Source of the DNA: Chthoniobacterales bacterium | Lineage (GTDB): Bacteria > Verrucomicrobiota > Verrucomicrobiia > Chthoniobacterales > Chthoniobacteraceae | DNA: 64,000 nt | Assembly (NCBI GenBank): GCA_038207335.1 | Contig: JBBQZX010000009.1 | Span: forward strand, 1 to 64,000 | Direction of reading: 5' to 3' | Shown here: in pieces, positions 44,328 to 53,242 of the stretch | Layout: each line of letters begins with the position of its first letter | Position numbering within the stretch: position 1 is the stretch's first letter | Made by a program: the position numbers and the translations under genes | Notes under the pieces: model-generated | What the model was told of the DNA's origin: nothing | What the model saw: only the letters and a program-made list of their open reading frames with translations | Database searches by the model: none

Positions 44328-44518
44328 GAGTGAGGAAAAACTCTAACGGCTCGAAGCACCGTAAGTCGCGCGGATTCTCGGATCGCCCCGCTCGCTGCAC
44401 CGAACCGGTTGATTCGACTGACTTCAAAAGAGTGGGAAGATTAGCTTGGCGGCACCTCCGTTGGGCCCCTGTCGGCTGATCGTTTGTTCGGGGCGGCTGG
44501 CGCGCCGGGTGCGCGCTA

Positions 44519-44645
44519 CAGCATACAACCCGCGGTAATGTAAAGCGGCGGGGCGCCGGGAGGCCTCCTTTGGAGAGCCGGTGCGGTGCGCGGAGAAGTG
44601 GCCGGCTGGTCCGCCGCCGCTTTGCATTACCGCTGTTGTATGCTG
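44519..44645. repeat. attC-like long imperfect palindrome
   Basis: cagcatacAAC-ccgcggtaatgtaaagcggcgg ... ccgccgctttgcattaccgct-GTTgtatgctg. Confidence 0.55.
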
Positions 44646-44945
44646 AGCGGAGCGCGGGCCTGGCGCGGCGGCTGCCTCCTTGCGCGTTTCGTGGGGGGAC
44701 GAACGCGAGCAGCCGCCGTGACAGGCCCGCGCGCAGCGGTTCGCGCAAGCTCCCGGCGTGACAGCCGCGCGGCGGGAACGGGGCGGGCGGGGGTTAGGGT
44801 CCGCTGCGCGGCCAGCAGGCACCGTGACGCGCGAGGGAGCGGCGCGGTTAAGCGGGGCCGCTCGCTCGCGTGGCGCGATGCCTGCACGGTTGGGGCACGC
44901 AACCCACCCGCGGCGGGACGCCGCCACACTTCAACGGCAAGGCGG

Positions 44946-45755
44946 TTAAGCGCGGCGTTTCGAAGCAATCGCGACGATGGCAAGCAAGGTGAGGATTCCC
45001 ACCACCCACGGCCACACCGGCGCTCCGCGCTCAACGGTCGGCGCGGGACTTTCAGCAACCTTTGGTGCCGACGGAGCAACCGGCATGGCAGTTGGAGTCG
45101 CCATCGGCCGTGCAAACGTAGTCGGGGGCGACTGATCTGGAATAGGACTCGGTGCCTTTGGCAGTTCGGGTTTGGACGCTTCGGCCTCGCGTTGCAACGT
45201 TGCCTGCCAAAACTCAGATTCGTCTGTCCCCATATCCGCAAGCCATGCATCCCGCTTCTTCCGCTCCAAAGTTAGACTCGCATTCGAAGAACGTCGGTGA
45301 ATGGAAAGCAATAACACCTCGTCAGCGACATGCCACCGCAGGACACGGGTAACACTTGTGGACGCATCTTCAAAGTTCGGGACATCTGATAATCTGGCGG
45401 AACCATGCTGCTCTTGGAGTTTGGCTGCCATCCCTTTAAACGCTTCCTCGGCAACAGCAGCTGGAAGTAATGGATCATCAGTCCAGTAGCTGAGAGCATT
45501 GAATTTACCTCCGTCTAACTTGGCACGCCCCGCAAAAGTCAGTCCGAACGCGGAGAGTTTCTTAAGTTTTTGCTCGGTCGCTTTTGAATCTAAAGCGACG
45601 GGCGCATCCAGGTATCGAGCTGCTTTTGCGTTTGTTGGACTGCCTAAGTTCTGCGCGACAATACCGAGGAGTTCCTCGTCGCTAGCCAGCGCGGGGCCAT
45701 ACGCTAGCAACCCGCAGATAAACAGCCCGCTGGTTCGTAGCAAACAAAGATTCAT
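44946..45755 (-). CDS. Exported, C-terminally membrane-anchored hypothetical protein (candidate immunity protein)
   Basis: Signal peptide, Pro-rich linker, terminal TM VWPWVVGILTLLAIVAIASKRRA; ATGA overlap with the amidase gene; visibly lower GC than backbone genes. Confidence 0.7.
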   Translation of the reverse strand: MNLCLLRTSGLFICGLLAYGPALASDEELLGIVAQNLGSPTNAKAARYLDAPVALDSKATEQKLKKLSAFGLTFAGRAKLDGGKFNALSYWTDDPLLPAAVAEEAFKGMAAKLQEQHGSARLSDVPNFEDASTSVTRVLRWHVADEVLLLSIHRRSSNASLTLERKKRDAWLADMGTDESEFWQATLQREAEASKPELPKAPSPIPDQSPPTTFARPMATPTAMPVAPSAPKVAESPAPTVERGAPVWPWVVGILTLLAIVAIASKRRA

Positions 45756-48700
45756 TGGGCGGGTTGTGCGCGAAGGTCATCAATGCTCGCATTCCCCAAT
45801 GCTTTAGCAGCTTCCTCACGCATCCTGTTAGCCGTGGCTGACAAGGTTGCATTTCCCTCGTTGAAAAGGAGATCAGCGTTTGTGTTAGACATCCATTCCA
45901 TCTCGATCAGCGCCGCTCTGCATGGTGTGTGGCCGGCGATGTTGCCGTTATAGTTAGGGGTTGCTGGGTCGGTGCTGTCGGAAAGAGTATCCAGTCCCTT
46001 TTGCAGATTAGCTTCATGCTGCTCCGAAGTAATCCCGTCAGTTGGAGCGTTGCGGCTCGCTTGCGGCTCAACAGCCGCGATTGCCGTCTGCACCCCTTGG
46101 CGTAGTCGAATCGCAAGAGCTTGATCTTCTGCAAGATTAAGGTTGCCAGTTGCGTCCCACATTCCAAATGGATGTCGCCTCAAGGGAACTCCATCTACGG
46201 AGTTGAAGTGGATGCTGACATAAACATCACAACCATTCTCCCTTGCCACTTTCGTCCGGTCAGGGAACGAGACGTTCGCCGTTCCGGTGCGTGTGAGAAA
46301 GACTTTGAGTTGAAGATGTTCAGTGTCTCGACGTCTCCGCAAGTCCGCTGCCATACGCTGCGCAACATCGAGGGCAAAGGCGTGCTCTTGGGCTCCGGTT
46401 GTTACTCCCGTGCCGCCGAGCGCATTCGATCCTCCAGCCGCACCAATTCCGTGACCGGGATCAATTACGATAACGCCAGGCACTTCCAAATCGATGAGTT
46501 CAAGCGGTGAAGTAGTTCCTTCGATCTGAATCTTGATGCGGGCTTTGTTCAGGCCTATTGGCGGAACATTCACTCGAATCGCAGTAAACCCGTCGGCATC
46601 AATGGTCGTTTCCCCTTGTTCTTGAGAGACCCGACGATAGCTGTGAGCAGTAAAAGTTGTTGATGCTTCAAACCGATCCCGGTGAGCTGCTACCGCGCGA
46701 TCCCAGCTACCCCGGAAGACCGGTGGAAGATTCAGACCATTCGGATCAAAGGACCGGGTAAAGAGAGGATCCATCGACCAAGTAACTTTCTTGTCCTTGA
46801 GGGCCGAACCGATCTTCACTTTCAATTCACGCCACGCGATTCGGATGGCAGCCGCGTCGTTTTGGTTGGCAGCGGGATCCCTCTCAACCATCGCATTGGA
46901 TTGAGGGTTTGGTTTCGGTTTCTCAGAGCCTGCAATCTCGTTGCCATCGTCATCCCTGAGCTTGGGCGCTAACTCGACTACTTCCACTGGGAGGAGGAGG
47001 GCGGGGTTGGAAAGCCAAGCAATGTTTTCTGGATCCGACACGGTGCCTTCGGGTGTCCAGAATGTGCCGACGCAATTTCCAGCAGAGTTTATTGCGTTTG
47101 GATAGATGGGAGTCGGCGGTTCGAGGGTCGGGTCTCGAGATTCCGGTAGCGGGAAGGCTTGGAGGGCGACATGGAAATATGGGTCGCTGGGAGTCCATTC
47201 GGCTATGCAATGTTGATTGAGAAGCCACTGCCCTTGGCCGGTGGCATCGGAACCATATACGTCGGCGTAAAAGATGATGCTCGTCCGGTGGGTGATCGGA
47301 TTCGGGTTCGTGATCATTACCGGGTTCGCGTTCTGAAACTGCGATCTCAGTTGTGGGGGAAAGTTATTCATGAAAACTCTCTCTCGTACGGAATCCGATA
47401 ACTCGGATGTTTGGATGAAGCCGAGATACCCCCATCCTTTGCGCGTATGCGATGGGTTGTCTGGGAGTGGGTCCGGAAAGTCCTCGGTCGGATTCTCCCA
47501 CTGGTAACTAATCCCATCATTGAGAAGTCCGATGACCTCCCTTCGGTCATTGATCGCAGTCGGAGTGCAGCGGCCGAGTGAAGTGTAGGTTCCGGCGAGG
47601 TTCCAAATGAGGTTGTCGGTCACCACGATGTTTCCAGTTACAATATCTCTGCCTGTGATGTTTATAATCTCCAAGCCATTCTCGCTTATCGCGACGAAGT
47701 TCGCGCCTTCTATTGCTGTGATCGGAGTGCCAACGAGAAATTGGCGAAATGGCGCTCTTACGAGACCTTCATAGTCATCAAATTCGCCGTGGATAGTCCC
47801 AGGATAGGCAAGCTCCCCCCCTTTCACTCCTGTGCCCGTCACTTTGTAAATGACGCAGCCCATCTCTGGCGTAGTGTCAGCCCATACTCCGTTCCGCAGG
47901 TCTGGTGGAGCTGGCGGATTGTCGTGTGGCAAAGGAATGAGGTATGCAGGTACTGGAACATCGTCAGGTATGCCTCGCTCGTAATTCCACTCGTAATCGC
48001 CTTCCTTTTTTTCCCAAGTATTGCATGAGCCAACAAGTTCTCCCCATGTGGAGACGGAATTGCCAATGTATAACTTTTCTTTAGATACGTCACCATCCCA
48101 AGTTGTTTCTTTCTTGAATTCTTTCACACTGGTGATCGCGCCATCTGCCCACGCACTCGCGATATATCTGTTTGACTGAAAAAATGCGGCTACCCACGCC
48201 ACATGAGTCTGTTCGTCGATCGCCAAAAACTCGTTCTGTCCAGGTTGAACCGGCTCGCCATTAAAGGTGAACTTGCTCAAATCGATCAGCGCATACGCTT
48301 TTACGGGGATGTCTTGACTCCGCAAGGGGTCAGTGGGGTATTGGTCGAGGTAGTCTGGGACGCCATCCCCGTCGCTATCTTGGGCGCTAGTCGGGATATT
48401 TGGATCGGTGCCGTTGGCGATTTCGTCGCCATCGCTGATGCCGTCGCCGTCGGTGTCGGAGTTGTGGGGGTCGGTGTGGATGCCTCCACCGTTGTCACCG
48501 CCGATTTCGTCGATGTCGCGGATGCCGTCACCGTCACTGTCGCGGTTGAAATCGAATGCGAAGAGGTTCTTGACTTGGCCGATGTTGACAAGGGTGAAGT
48601 CGTTGGTGCCTGGGGGGGTGAGATTCCACGGGTAGATGCTGCCGAGGCCAACCTCTGCGAGGCGGTCGTAAAAGGGCTTTGCAATGGTTTTGAGTTGAAA

Positions 48701-49075
48701 GAGAGTGACGGCTGCATACTCGTCGTGGGTGACGCCTGACGTGGGAGCCCATGCGGCGACGAGGTTTTCGATTGTTGAGCCGGCACCACCGGGGAGCCTG
48801 CTGAATTCCACGGCGGCTTGGGTGACGATTTGTTTGACTTGGCCGGTATTGGGGGCCGTAAAGTTGTCCACGCTCGGGTAGCTGCCGGGCCATTGGGGCG
48901 TGGAGTCGATGGAATTGGTGCGCTTGATCACGTCGCGAGTGAACCACCAATCGGGGTATTCGGGCGGTTTGTCGAGGGGTATGGGACCCGCGATGCTGAC
49001 GGTGGCGCTCCAGACGAGGAGGAGCAGCCAGGCGGTGACGCGGGTGGCCATGGGAGGGGAGGTGCGATGTTGCAT
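45752..49075 (-). CDS. Secreted modular protein: N-terminal triple-repeat domain, TSP3-like DxDxDG repeats, unknown middle, C-terminal N-acetylmuramoyl-L-alanine amidase (Amidase_3)
   Basis: Signal peptide; DSDGDGIRD, DTDGDGISD, DSDGDGVPD; amidase motifs VIVIDPGHG, QEHAFAL, FLTRT, YVSIHFNS, ALIEMEWMSN. Confidence 0.85.
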   Translation of the reverse strand: MQHRTSPPMATRVTAWLLLLVWSATVSIAGPIPLDKPPEYPDWWFTRDVIKRTNSIDSTPQWPGSYPSVDNFTAPNTGQVKQIVTQAAVEFSRLPGGAGSTIENLVAAWAPTSGVTHDEYAAVTLFQLKTIAKPFYDRLAEVGLGSIYPWNLTPPGTNDFTLVNIGQVKNLFAFDFNRDSDGDGIRDIDEIGGDNGGGIHTDPHNSDTDGDGISDGDEIANGTDPNIPTSAQDSDGDGVPDYLDQYPTDPLRSQDIPVKAYALIDLSKFTFNGEPVQPGQNEFLAIDEQTHVAWVAAFFQSNRYIASAWADGAITSVKEFKKETTWDGDVSKEKLYIGNSVSTWGELVGSCNTWEKKEGDYEWNYERGIPDDVPVPAYLIPLPHDNPPAPPDLRNGVWADTTPEMGCVIYKVTGTGVKGGELAYPGTIHGEFDDYEGLVRAPFRQFLVGTPITAIEGANFVAISENGLEIINITGRDIVTGNIVVTDNLIWNLAGTYTSLGRCTPTAINDRREVIGLLNDGISYQWENPTEDFPDPLPDNPSHTRKGWGYLGFIQTSELSDSVRERVFMNNFPPQLRSQFQNANPVMITNPNPITHRTSIIFYADVYGSDATGQGQWLLNQHCIAEWTPSDPYFHVALQAFPLPESRDPTLEPPTPIYPNAINSAGNCVGTFWTPEGTVSDPENIAWLSNPALLLPVEVVELAPKLRDDDGNEIAGSEKPKPNPQSNAMVERDPAANQNDAAAIRIAWRELKVKIGSALKDKKVTWSMDPLFTRSFDPNGLNLPPVFRGSWDRAVAAHRDRFEASTTFTAHSYRRVSQEQGETTIDADGFTAIRVNVPPIGLNKARIKIQIEGTTSPLELIDLEVPGVIVIDPGHGIGAAGGSNALGGTGVTTGAQEHAFALDVAQRMAADLRRRRDTEHLQLKVFLTRTGTANVSFPDRTKVARENGCDVYVSIHFNSVDGVPLRRHPFGMWDATGNLNLAEDQALAIRLRQGVQTAIAAVEPQASRNAPTDGITSEQHEANLQKGLDTLSDSTDPATPNYNGNIAGHTPCRAALIEMEWMSNTNADLLFNEGNATLSATANRMREEAAKALGNASIDDLRAQPAQ

Positions 49076-49093
49076 TGGGCGATGGCCTCGAGT

Positions 49094-50785
49094 CTAGGGC
49101 ACTGGGTTGGGACCGAATGCCCCCATGGAGAGGTCGCCTTGGGGCTCGATGTGGACGGGGCCGTCGAAGCGGGCGGTGCCGGCGACGTGGAGCTGGGCTA
49201 GCGGCTGCGCGATGCCGATACCGACGTCGCCGGCGGGGGTGATTCGCACTCTTTCGACGGATGGGACTGGGTTGGCTCCGTTCCCGGTGCCGGCGGTTTT
49301 GATGAGGACGGCACCGCCTTGTCCGTTGCCGAAGCCGTCGCCGCCGGCGATGGAGAGGTCGGCCCCGGCGACGGTTTCGGCAGATGCGCCGGTGGCGTGG
49401 AGGGTGAAGCCGATCGGGTTTGCCGATGCTTTGCCGTTGCCGAAGTAGCCGTTGGCGATGAAGCCGTTCCCGGCGAGGTTGTCTCCTCCGACAATCAATT
49501 GATTGCTGCTGGATGCGGTGATTGAATCGTCTGAGTAAGCTCCGAGGAATATGTTGAATGAACCGAGTAAATTATGCAGGCCTGCAGTATACCCAATGGC
49601 TGTGTTGAAATTCCCGGTCGTATTGCCGATTCCGGCTGCGCTACCAATGAAAATGTTATGAGAGCCCTCCGTGTTCTCGGCTCCTGTCACGGCTCCAATG
49701 AATACGTTCGAGTAGCCCGACGTGTTTCGATAGCCGGTGCTGTCGCCAATAAACTGATTCTCACTGCCGACCGTGTTACCTCTGCCAGCGAAAACCCCCA
49801 TGAAGGTGTTGGCTATCCCAGATGTGTTATTCTCCCCAGCTTGTCGGCCAATGAAATTATTGTAAGTCCCGGTCGTATTATAGTATCCGGACCCAGCACC
49901 CATGAAGTTGTTAAAGGCTCCGGTGGTGTTGAATACACCGCTGTTGACAGAGATGAAATTGTTGCAGTAACCTGTGGTGTTGCTATACCCGGCGTTTCCT
50001 CCCACGAAATTGTTGCAGCTTCCTAAATCGTTGTTGCGACCGGCATTTGCTCCAAGGAAGTTGTTGCCGCCACCTTGCGAGTTTGACAATCCAGCGCCGG
50101 TGCCGGCGAAAAAGTTACCCGCTCCTTGAGAGCCGGGATTTCCCGCGCCCGCGAGGGCAATTCCGTCGGGGCTGCTGCGAGATAAGATTTCGACGCCGTT
50201 GATTTTTAAGGCACCGCCTTGGATGTTGAGGGCAGGAATGGTGAGTGGCGAACCAGCGGTGATGTTGCAGATGCCGTTGTAGCCATTGGCGCTGCTGGCG
50301 AATCTGCTCTCTGTGAGTACATTGGAGCCGTTGATCGTGATGCTTCCGTTGCTGTTTGGATTGAGAGCGATGGTCGGCGTATTCGAATTCGACGGATACA
50401 AGAGTAAATCGTTCGACACATCGAGGGTCATCTGCGGGAAAGAAGTGCCATTGAGATCGGCTTTTTCCCACTGCAGCGCGATCGTCGGCTTGGCTAGGAA
50501 AAATCTTAGAACGGAAGTGGGGAGAGCCGGGTCTTCACCGTAGCTCAGAGTCAGCGCCTGCGATTCTCCAATCTGAGTCGTTGCCCTGCCAAAGTAAAAC
50601 TCGCTGCCTGCAACATCGAGGACATTGTGAAGGGTGGTGGCACCGTTGACATCTAGCGAACCGCCGATGGTAGCATTGCCGTTGACATCGAGCTCGGTGA
50701 AGGATTCAGGGAAGGCAGGAATCTGGGAGGAAAGGAGGAGGGCGATGCAGGTGGTGAGGATGCGGTGGGAGGCTTGTTTTTTCAT
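49094..50785 (-). CDS. Secreted trimeric adhesin/tail-fibre-like protein with 17-aa beta-roll repeats
   Basis: Signal-like N-terminus; about 12 NNFxGxxAGxxNTTGxx repeats; C-terminal ERVRITPAGDVGIGIAQPLAQLHVAG and PQGDLSMGAF. Confidence 0.8.
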   Translation of the reverse strand: MKKQASHRILTTCIALLLSSQIPAFPESFTELDVNGNATIGGSLDVNGATTLHNVLDVAGSEFYFGRATTQIGESQALTLSYGEDPALPTSVLRFFLAKPTIALQWEKADLNGTSFPQMTLDVSNDLLLYPSNSNTPTIALNPNSNGSITINGSNVLTESRFASSANGYNGICNITAGSPLTIPALNIQGGALKINGVEILSRSSPDGIALAGAGNPGSQGAGNFFAGTGAGLSNSQGGGNNFLGANAGRNNDLGSCNNFVGGNAGYSNTTGYCNNFISVNSGVFNTTGAFNNFMGAGSGYYNTTGTYNNFIGRQAGENNTSGIANTFMGVFAGRGNTVGSENQFIGDSTGYRNTSGYSNVFIGAVTGAENTEGSHNIFIGSAAGIGNTTGNFNTAIGYTAGLHNLLGSFNIFLGAYSDDSITASSSNQLIVGGDNLAGNGFIANGYFGNGKASANPIGFTLHATGASAETVAGADLSIAGGDGFGNGQGGAVLIKTAGTGNGANPVPSVERVRITPAGDVGIGIAQPLAQLHVAGTARFDGPVHIEPQGDLSMGAFGPNPVP

Positions 50786-50819
50786 AGGTCGAGAGGTTGG
50801 GCGGTGTGAGTTGCGTTTC

Positions 50820-50849
50820 GGGTCGCCAAGAGGGTCGCCAAGAGGGTCG
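50820..50849. repeat. 12-bp tandem duplication (gggtcgccaaga x2.5)
   Basis: Directly visible in the intergenic region. Confidence 0.7.
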
Positions 50850-50862
50850 ATGTTTCCGTCGC

Positions 50863-51477
50863 CTAGCCGGCGAAGGGGCAGGTGACGATGTCGCTGTCTT
50901 GGCCGACTTCGGTGTCGCCGATGATGCCGCGGGCCATGTATTCACGGTCTTCGGGGGCGCCGGGGACGAGGAGGGGGGTCTGGTCGTCGTAGGGGAAAGT
51001 TTTGCGGGCGGGGGCGACGAGGAGCCACGCGGCGTTGTTGCGGCGCAGGTAGATATTGACGCGTTCGGCGTAGTTTTTGGTGCCGGTGATGCGGACGTGG
51101 CCGCGCATGGGCTCGACTTTGATGACGGGCTTGATGGTGTTTGGCGGGGGCGTGTAGGCGCTGGTGAAGATGCGCATGGCATTGCCCAAGCCGGTGGTGA
51201 AGGCCGGGTTGGCCTTGATCTGGTGGATGAAGTCGCGCAGCGGGGTGTTGCTGTCGTGGAAGAGCTGGTGGGCGTCGCCGCTGGCGGTATCGAGGACGGT
51301 CTGGGCGTCGATGACGGCCTGGTAGGCGGCGATGAGCGGGTCGATGAGGGCGTTGAACGCGGTGACGGCGGCGGCGTTCAGGCTGAGGGTGGTGGCGTTG
51401 TCGGCGACCTCTTGCTTGAGGTCTTTGAGCCACTGGAGGCGGTTTGCGAAGGAGTCGGGGATGAAGTCGTTGGCCAT
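50863..51477 (-). CDS. Hypothetical 204-aa protein (amphipathic helical N-half, beta-sandwich-like C-half)
   Basis: Clean ORF with strong codon bias; MANDFIP.. start; C-terminal REYMARGIIGDTEVGQDSD. Confidence 0.8.
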   Translation of the reverse strand: MANDFIPDSFANRLQWLKDLKQEVADNATTLSLNAAAVTAFNALIDPLIAAYQAVIDAQTVLDTASGDAHQLFHDSNTPLRDFIHQIKANPAFTTGLGNAMRIFTSAYTPPPNTIKPVIKVEPMRGHVRITGTKNYAERVNIYLRRNNAAWLLVAPARKTFPYDDQTPLLVPGAPEDREYMARGIIGDTEVGQDSDIVTCPFAG

Positions 51478-51597
51478 GGTTCGGGGTAGGTTGGTGGTTC
51501 TTGGTTTCGCTGTTTAGAGGTGAAAACGGGCGGTTTCTCTGCGGCGCGGGCGAGGTTAGGGGTGCCGGAGGGTGAATGTGAGGGCGTCGCCTCTGTA

Positions 51598-51891
51598 GAG
51601 GAGGTTTCCAAGCGAGCTGGCGGGGTTTCCAGCGGGATTGGCGGGTACGCCAATGCGATTGGCATACTGGCGGATTGGATTGGCGGGGTTTCCAATCGAA
51701 TTGGCGTACTCGCCAAGTCGAATGGCGGGGTTTCCAATGTGATTGGTGGGTACGCCAATCCGATTGGAGTAGTTCCCAGCGCAATTGGCGTACTTGCCAA
51801 TCGGGCTGGCGGCGCTGTGGATCGAGATGGCAGGGTAGCGGACCGGGCTGGATAGGATGCCGGACGACGCGGCGACGGTGCGGGGGTTCGC
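51598..51891. repeat. Degenerate 21-bp-period tandem array (about 14 units)
   Basis: Units such as ggcggggtttccagcgggatt, ggcgggtacgccaatgcgatt, ggcggggtttccaatcgaatt, ggcgtactcgccaagtcgaat, in exact 21-nt register. Confidence 0.85.
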
Positions 51892-52252
51892 GGGGAGGGG
51901 GTTTTCGCGCGTGGGGGACACGGGAGCACAGTTGAGCGGGTGGCCAATGCGGTGTCTGTCCGGGATGAGCCCCCATTTTGAGGTGGAGACGCTGGAGGGG
52001 AGGAGGCGTGGGCATTTGCTTACGCTGAGGAGGGGATTGGTGCGATTTTCCCCGGACACTGCTCCCCTACAAATGGGGCGGTTCAGTGTTCAAATCGCGG
52101 CATTTTGAGTGTTGTTTGGTGGAGGTGAGGGCGCTGATTTGGTTGCGTTTCTCTGCCATGCGTCGGGGGTGAAAAGCGGGGGATGGTGGTCCTTCGTTGC
52201 ACTCAGGATGACAGGGTGGGGAGGGGTGCGATCGTCGTTGCGGTGAGCAAGT

Positions 52253-52305
52253 TTGTAGGGCGACCGCTTCGGTTGCCCAAGGCAGGCGGAGTGCCTGCCC
52301 TACAA
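52253..52305. repeat. GTAG-type REP doublet
   Basis: ttgtagggcgaccgcttcggttgccc-aa-ggcaggcggagtgcctgccctacaa. Confidence 0.7.
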
Positions 52306-52396
52306 TTTTCCGGCAAGCTGAATCGCTTTGGGGAAATTCTTGAGGCAGGGTGTGGGTGAAGGTGCTCTACTCGGGCTGTGTCACGTTGCTCCCTCG

Positions 52397-53242
52397 ATGA
52401 TTGATCCTTTTAAGAAGCCACGCGTGCTGGTGGTGATGGCTGTGCCGGGGCTGCGGACGGGGATGTCGATGTTTCTCGAAAAGGAGGGGTCGCTGGAGGT
52501 GTGCGGGGAGACGTGCAAGGCGGCGGAGGCGCGGGCAATGTGCGGGGAGTTGCTCCCGGATGCGATCGTGCTGGACCCAGAGGTGGCGGGGCTGGGGCTG
52601 GCGCTGGTGCGCGATTTCAAAAAACTGCACCGGGCGGCTTCGACGGCGCTGTATGCGAGGCGGATCGATGCGGAGCAGGTGCGCCGGGCTTTCAAGGCGG
52701 GGGCGCAAGGTTATTTCTCGCAATCGGAGGAGTTGCCGACGGTGGTGGCGGAGCTGGTGCGGGTCTGCTGGGGGGAGCGGGTGATGAGCCCGGCGGTATC
52801 GCGGCAGATGACGCGCGATTTTACAAAGGGGAATGACAGGACGGCCGGGCTGGAGCGGATTTCGGCGCGGGAGCAGGATGTCCTATGGCTGCTGGGCCAT
52901 GGGAAGGGGGAGTCGGCGATCGCGCTGGAGCTGGGGGTGGGTGTGAAGACGGTGGAGACGTATTTCGAGCGGCTGAAGCAGAAGCTCTCGCTGAAGGATG
53001 CCGCGCAACTGCTGGCGGTGGCACGGGAATATGCGCGGCAGCACTCGGAGGTGAGCGGCCGCGCCATGGAGGCGGGGCGAGAGGGATCGGCAGGCGCGGA
53101 TGTGGGGGAGAAGGCGGTGGCGATGCTGTCGGAGGTGGGTGCGCCGCCGCTGATGCGGGGGTTCTTCGCGACTGATTTTCTCGCGCCCCCATCGGGTGCG
53201 CGGGGGACTCGCAGCTTCCGCTACTCGCGGAGGCGGGTGTAG
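52397..53242 (+). CDS. NarL/LuxR family response regulator with atypical receiver
   Basis: REC-like N-terminus; LuxR HTH ISAREQDVLWLLGHGKGESAIALELGVGVKTVETY. Confidence 0.82.
   Translation: MIDPFKKPRVLVVMAVPGLRTGMSMFLEKEGSLEVCGETCKAAEARAMCGELLPDAIVLDPEVAGLGLALVRDFKKLHRAASTALYARRIDAEQVRRAFKAGAQGYFSQSEELPTVVAELVRVCWGERVMSPAVSRQMTRDFTKGNDRTAGLERISAREQDVLWLLGHGKGESAIALELGVGVKTVETYFERLKQKLSLKDAAQLLAVAREYARQHSEVSGRAMEAGREGSAGADVGEKAVAMLSEVGAPPLMRGFFATDFLAPPSGARGTRSFRYSRRRV

Follow-up and report, generated by a model that had tools for sequence, protein, structure and literature searches.

Within the window, by which we mean the whole 64,000-nucleotide stretch analyzed here, a degenerate array of 21-bp units stands 5' of a gene for a 204-amino-acid protein. 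The features of the locus are as follows.

44330..53220, no strand: island of ~8.9 kb comprising the module plus three genes downstream of it; four same-genus relatives lack it at the syntenic site
50863..51477, minus strand: 204-aa partner gene; predicted helices at residues 10-26, 35-88 and 95-103, Fn3-like domain at residues 107-204
51478..51602, minus strand: spacer of 125 bp from array to start codon, with A/C-rich sequence beside the ATG
51603..51812, no strand: core array of 10 dyad-symmetric 21-bp units with CCAA...TTGG arms and a variable core; leave-one-out profile 0.57-0.68
51813..51875, no strand: three decayed units, in register, at the gene-distal end; profile 0.44-0.46 against ~0.27 off phase
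51939..51959, no strand: lone in-phase unit (CCAA at 51944), profile score 0.50
52397..53242, plus strand: divergent NarL/LuxR-type response regulator with a degenerate receiver

The genes flanking 44330-53220 are adjacent to each other in the four relatives, and the intervening stretch was present at none of the seven loci examined. We place the module in an island because the relatives' flanking genes adjoin without this stretch.

The sequence-only reading of this DNA described about 14 units in strict 21-nt register without indels. The register is borne out: over 51603..51854, identity is 0.57 at lag 21 and 0.58 at lag 42, against 0.27 +/- 0.03 (maximum 0.39) in 5000 base shuffles, and the lag-21 signal is the highest in the whole window. 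The count needs revision to 10 good and 3 decayed units; positions 51876-51891 are at background in the leave-one-out profile and lie outside the array, and the lone unit beyond them is possibly the remnant of a once longer array. The mini-palindromes are confirmed as dyad units (p = 0.002 against column shuffles for the core array). TTGG and CCAA had been said to recur every 10 to 11 bp, and here the reading was mistaken: identity at lags 10 and 11 is 0.22, below the shuffles, and a direct 10.5-bp periodicity is absent from the array. Instead, CCAA is followed by TTGG at 9 bp, and TTGG by the next CCAA at 12 bp. It is the dyad axes that recur every 10.5 bp (51645.5, 51656, 51666.5 and so on to 51792.5), an arithmetic consequence of the symmetry of the 21-bp unit. 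The distance to the gene, put at about 120 bp, measures 125 bp upstream of the ATG at 51477, and the several overlapping ORFs seen to cross the array are matched by five of six frames being stop-free over the units examined.

That the array is not CRISPR also stands, with no structure of constant repeat and free spacer. Every column of the window array has a majority base at 0.54 or more, and none of the 37 arrays compared has a run of free columns (majority below 0.5) longer than 4. CRISPR-like polarity was considered and rejected, the units being most alike in the middle of the array and decaying toward both ends (14.7, 15.8, 15.9, 16.4 and 15.2 of 21); the best-matching units agree at ~15-16 of 21 bases. 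A-specific mutagenesis as in DGRs was not seen, and the leading changes are C>T, T>C and G>A. A scan for sigma-70 promoters and terminators found neither, with no sigma-70 consensus in the spacer, and no common flanking motif was seen by eye around the arrays.

The partner is predicted to be a helical hairpin joined to a seven-stranded Fn3 sandwich. Its structure model (pLDDT 81, pTM 0.48) has helices followed by a beta-sandwich, and residues 107-204 of the model resemble Fn3 domains (Foldseek E 2.4e-4; VIA Z 11.3, rmsd 2.4, 87 residues aligned to 3mpc_B). By sequence, the protein has no match to Pfam fn3 or to any family in Pfam, NCBIfam or PHROG, no Pfam family recurs among 110 aligned relatives, and a search of the sequences of solved structures returned only coiled-coil-like matches. 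Inspection revealed no hydrophobic N-terminal signal. No nuclease, recombinase or polymerase fold is among the listed matches, a weak absence since the helical half was barely probed, and searches of plasmids and viral contigs gave no match.

This family is large, with 1175 representatives of clusters at 50% identity (profile E <=0.001). The nearest Atlas clusters are unnamed and commonest in Verrucomicrobiota, Bacteroidota and Pseudomonadota, and close homologs come from records of Spartobacteria, Chthoniobacterales and Verrucomicrobiota. The gene is patchy and multicopy, found in 14/201 genomes at the level of the class, 4/301 of the phylum and 50/301 of the order, and a single genome can hold as many as 12 matches; one of the 50 positive order genomes is marked unpublished, and its locus was left out of all locus counts. 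The proteins are mostly acidic or neutral (pI <=6.8 in 42 of 47) and have conserved basic residues at R81, K88 and K134. Some members (L013-L017, L026, L034, L040, L051, L058; P0034, P0047, P0084, P0104, P0136) have, N-terminal to the usual start, a short aromatic extension that is conserved (LDEGWRLDEG or RWGDP, for instance) followed by a Pro-rich linker.

The proposal that the array is tied to the adjacent gene is strongly supported. Loci were counted if the gene start was present with at least 450 bp upstream, with duplicates, fragments and contig-edge loci dropped, and an array was called at a period-21 score of at least 0.47 within 800 bp upstream of the gene. By this measure an upstream array stands beside 55 of 60 full-length homologs (37/41 and 18/19 further loci), which are related loci and not independent draws, compared with 60 of 3264 genes in the source genome. 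The prospect that homologs would be found without neighboring arrays fails because 55 of 60 carry one; of the remaining five, L015 has its array downstream and four have none. The gap from array to ATG has a median of 135 bp (range 34-418, n = 55). Autocorrelation near the homologs, a check suggested at the outset, agrees: among periods 8-45 the best is 21 or 42 at 52 of 60 loci and 20 or 22 at none. Upstream of five family genes (L024, L045, L085, L086, L094) there are 8-bp tandem repeats, which give the best-scoring period there; four of the five also show the 21-bp signal.

The NarL-type regulator is an accessory neighbor and no fixed part of the module. It groups weakly (86/86) with regulators beside two other arrays, in a tree with no starred branch. 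Among the two longest upstream ORFs in the 1.5 kb examined, a helix-turn-helix (HTH) gene (LuxR, XRE or other) occurs at 9 of 59 loci, and none at 50. The source genome has 14 LuxR-type matches among ~3800 genes, two of them across an array from a family gene; the 9/59 rate is well above this background, yet it is a minority.

What the array keeps is its period and symmetry, not its sequence. Dyad symmetry is found at p<0.05 in 41 of 47 gene-linked arrays. Array-to-array similarity is 0.37-0.39 where the proteins are less than 50% identical and 0.47 for eight pairs above 70%, and in two pairs with proteins 84-88% identical it is 0.39-0.41, near background. Units are shared in inverted orientation beyond the profile (z>2) in 9 of 44 arrays, with z<-2 in none, and a one-base register shift after which the array continues occurs in 8 of 44. 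We infer that units are renewed via tandem duplication and in-register inversion between palindromic arms. In-register inversion by itself could generate and maintain the dyad symmetry, without any selection.

Our preferred reading, held tentatively, is that the array is a double-stranded DNA platform read by its spacing and symmetry, that it controls the partner gene, and that arrays lacking such a gene are by-products. A double-stranded DNA element is the best fit largely by elimination; among the three functions originally proposed (DNA-level, leader RNA, peptide), the DNA-level one fits best. The row of symmetric 21-bp units 5' of the helical-hairpin and Fn3 gene would be the putative platform, on which protein molecules would assemble cooperatively at intervals of one or two helical turns and thereby control the adjacent gene. 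The reader would sense spacing and symmetry more than a fixed word. The first candidate binder is the partner protein as an oligomer, and the second is a neighboring HTH regulator, present at a minority of loci. Tandem duplication and in-register inversion would renew the units, creating and keeping their symmetry, and orphans would arise where copies moved with flanking DNA or where the gene was lost.

Observations consistent with this platform are the upstream position, the period, the dyad symmetry, the turnover of sequence, the gain and loss of whole units, the inverted inner units and the existence of orphans. The main difficulties are that the partner has no recognized DNA-binding fold and is acidic or neutral. 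There is also no regulator within 1.5 kb at 50 of 59 loci, and arrays 34-60 bp from the ATG leave scant promoter room, so that many may be transcribed. The excess of adjacent-unit pairing, the long-range lean toward G-U and the fold at z=-5.9 count against the platform as well, as do the excess of stop-free frames (85 versus 67), the 5 of 21 genome arrays at p<0.05 in the codon test and the dyad p<=0.01 in only 4 of 25 source-genome arrays. A promoter role also sits poorly with those arrays that lie within coding genes.

Arrays elsewhere in the source genome bear on a second explanation. This genome holds 25 period-21 arrays, and no other period between 10 and 40 is represented by more than 4. 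Of the 25, four stand 5' of a family or family-like gene, four are within long ORFs (one of these being clearly a standard coiled-coil repeat), and the other 17 are intergenic orphans. Three sisters (C32, C44 and C3:265.8k) share several hundred bases of flank at ~92% identity and differ by whole units. The array upstream of the C22 gene has two sisters, one at C20 and one lying in frame within alanyl-tRNA synthetase (AlaRS), and all three end at the same base; between the AlaRS and C22 arrays, end units match directly and inner units match in reverse orientation. The AlaRS array was found in 2 of 25 genomes, which agree in the end units and have the interior replaced. One AlaRS loop has inserts of ~50-220 aa in 5 of the 25 (L124, L125, L126, L127, L130), and two of these hold a 21-bp array.

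Five further genomes were sampled in part, by evenly spaced or contig-start pieces. In the three where the gene was not detected, 1.6 Mb contained 0 period-21 arrays; in the two that have 11 gene matches each, 0.8 Mb contained 6. The label "no gene" depends here on the reach of one profile. None of the six arrays is beside a detected family gene. A truncated gene with, by eye, a similar helical N terminus lies behind the C32 array (G000:C32:30939-31379) and was not hit by the family profile, and at C2:221427-221642 there is a short family remnant with no array detected. An inverted pair at 52253-52305 of the window, starting GTAG and ending CTAC, is presumably REP-like; it has close copies elsewhere in the genome and in G440, and pairs of the GTAG...CTAC type also flank the C20 and C32 arrays.

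A somewhat unlikely alternative to the platform is that the protein acts in trans to create, maintain or spread 21-bp arrays as a selfish element, with array plus gene as the autonomous form and orphans as non-autonomous copies. The prevalence of period 21 among genome arrays, the 17 intergenic arrays without a family gene, and the co-occurrence of arrays and gene in the sampled genomes, at a distance from any detected copy, all point this way. So do the common exact end of the C22, C20 and AlaRS arrays, the ~92% identical flanks with whole-unit differences in the C32 set, the presence of the AlaRS array in just two genomes, the patchy and multicopy gene, and the location of the window copy in an island. 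Against it, no nuclease, recombinase or polymerase fold was found, although the helical half was barely probed, and plasmids and viral contigs gave no match. Inspection by eye of two sister sets, in which only one end is well defined, showed neither terminal inverted repeats nor target duplications, and some orphans stand beside REP-like pairs, which are possible carriers. The co-occurrence involves five sampled genomes and the source genome, and gene loss from old modules predicts it likewise. We give slightly less weight to a version in which a self-spreading element needs no enzyme: the helical-Fn3 protein would polymerize on any symmetric 21-bp-phased DNA and thereby promote in-register duplication, inversion and copying to new sites, housekeeping genes included, until carriers fill with orphans.

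More doubtful is that the array is transcribed and serves as a leader or scaffold RNA with repeated hairpins, which the partner would bind for autoregulation or ribonucleoprotein assembly. The array does stand on the same side of the gene and a short distance from the start codon, and its region folds at z=-5.9. Adjacent units pair slightly more than in shuffles (1289 versus 1256 +/- 11, p=0.006), long-range pairs include 105 G-U against 78 A-C, and the conserved basic residues R81, K88 and K134 of the partner would suit such binding. However, mismatches in the arms show no preference for G-U (273, with 294 A-C), and within units there is no covariation, with 1374 Watson-Crick pairs compared to 1387 +/- 11 shuffled in 32 arrays. 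These counts give no support to the structured leader RNA of the initial reading. Folding shows no strand preference, being better on the sense strand in 26 of 44 arrays (versus 18) and, for the window array, on the antisense. Rfam gave nothing at gathering score (one chance-level match, 20 bits versus a gathering score of 61), the arrays have neither a motif in common nor a free spacer, and good folding is expected of any symmetric repeat.

A peptide reading is unlikely, and we trust it less than the RNA. It holds that the array would be translated into a 7-residue repeat peptide that evolves fast (ORF 51378-51947 on the minus strand is an example) and would pair with the long helix of the partner. 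The period does equal seven codons, and arrays are read in frame within AlaRS and one other long ORF. Stop-free frames exceed those in column shuffles (85 versus 67), with an open frame on the strand of the gene in 26 of 27 arrays (21.4 expected). The codon test compared the synonymous fraction in the best frame with column shuffles, and it is a weak test, in that its positive control failed, the wrong frame being chosen in the true coding heptad repeat C3:54798. With that test, the synonymous fraction of the window array is 0.45-0.46 in one gene-strand frame (p=0.07 in one run, 0.037 in another), and 5 of 21 source-genome arrays, including that of the window, reach p<0.05. Pooled over 27 arrays, the fraction is 0.407 versus 0.405 in the null, with 1 of 27 at p<0.05. 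The per-codon substitution check that the sequence-only reading had suggested thus yields a marginal excess for the window array and no pooled bias, and the one-base register shifts in 8 of 44 arrays speak against a constant frame for the 7-aa repeat peptide it had allowed. No peptide common to the loci was found, none of the six frames of array L041 is free of stops, the inner units of sister arrays are oppositely oriented, and the open frames of the window array have a high content of Pro or Arg/Trp. A fusion joining an array frame to the gene was also considered and is not favored: the stretch from array to ATG is stop-free in 5, 5 and 4 of 32 loci in the three frames, and two stops intervene in the window.

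Least probable is a functionless relic, in which slippage and inversion would perpetuate an inherited 21-bp unit beside the gene with no selection; the AlaRS arrays of two genomes, which keep their ends and replace their interior, are what birth-and-death turnover predicts, inversion can produce symmetry, and 5 of 60 genes lack an upstream array, but the period is still 21 or 42 beside proteins less than 30% identical with unrelated array sequences, and one-base shifts arise, yet a period of 20 or 22 is best at 0 of 60 gene-linked loci.

Comparison with known systems places the array among several partial likenesses. Plasmid and phage iterons and centromere arrays are tandem units of about two helical turns beside a gene for a small protein, and the present arrays share that layout. 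They differ in that their units are degenerate and symmetric and diverge even between proteins 84-88% identical; whereas iterons are near-identical direct repeats matched to a cognate protein, units here agree at ~15-16 of 21 bases. The partner is helical plus Fn3, not Rep or ParB/ParR-like, and the loci occur in multiple copies on chromosomal contigs, the plasmid search having given no match. Neither a Rep initiator nor a partition NTPase with its adaptor was found in 117 upstream ORFs of 59 loci (1.5-kb flanks) or among recurring neighbors. The phased operators of NarL/LuxR, LytTR and XRE regulators have 2-4 symmetric boxes on one helix face in a divergent promoter region. The present array likewise has symmetric boxes on one face and a NarL-type gene across from it, but arrays of this kind differ in having 10-20 boxes, none of them conserved, and in that just 9 of 59 loci have a regulator.

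TIGR-Tas systems have 36-nt units that each contain two variable 8-12-nt spacers, a Nop-domain protein and a UG...CCA box motif (PMC12045711). The likenesses are an array of ~5-15 units beside a small-protein gene, a locus-variable repeat and pseudo-symmetric units; the differences are a unit of 21 or 42 nt rather than 36, no free spacers, and a partner whose fold matches are Fn3 and not Nop, with the helical half barely probed. The window unit has TG and CCA, and the Box C/D-like UG...CCA motif occurs in 7 of 37 consensus units compared to 7.9 expected, which is no enrichment. Rickettsia palindromic elements and prokaryotic MITEs are palindromic repeats dispersed in a genome, and housekeeping genes carry some of them as in-frame inserts (PMC10969869). 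Homologous copies are dispersed here too, some of them read in frame with the host gene, and the AlaRS copy corresponds to the housekeeping inserts. The present elements, however, are tandem arrays of variable unit number, in several unrelated sequence families per genome, tied to one non-transposase family and with no terminal inverted repeat or target duplication seen by eye. By analogy, the array appears most like an iteron or phased operator in its working and most like Rickettsia palindromic elements in its dispersal, but for each of these, and for TIGR-Tas, some defining feature is absent or doubtful. A literature search lying mostly outside subscription journals found no description of such an array-gene layout.

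A large unnamed family thus travels with a DNA element that keeps geometry and discards sequence, in a module of less than 1.2 kb. If the array is read by its spacing, this would be protein-DNA recognition unlike that of operators or iterons; if the protein spreads arrays, it would be a mobile element without a recognizable enzyme. Such arrays would also account for spurious or odd heptad-repeat ORFs, including the in-frame insert of an essential synthetase.

The remainder of the island offers further observations. Three genes lie downstream of the module on the same strand (44946-50785 of the window), encoding a 563-aa protein with a signal-like N terminus and Gly/Asn repeats, a 1107-aa protein that combines a TSP3 repeat with an Amidase_3 domain at its C terminus, and a 269-aa protein with predicted membrane ends. 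Their layout resembles that of a secreted enzyme and its partner, and the GC content falls to 0.52-0.55. Between the 204-aa gene and the next gene is a 12-bp tandem repeat of 2.5 copies (50820-50849). Near the left edge of the island is a long imperfect palindrome (44522-44644), the ends of which we take to be attC-like.
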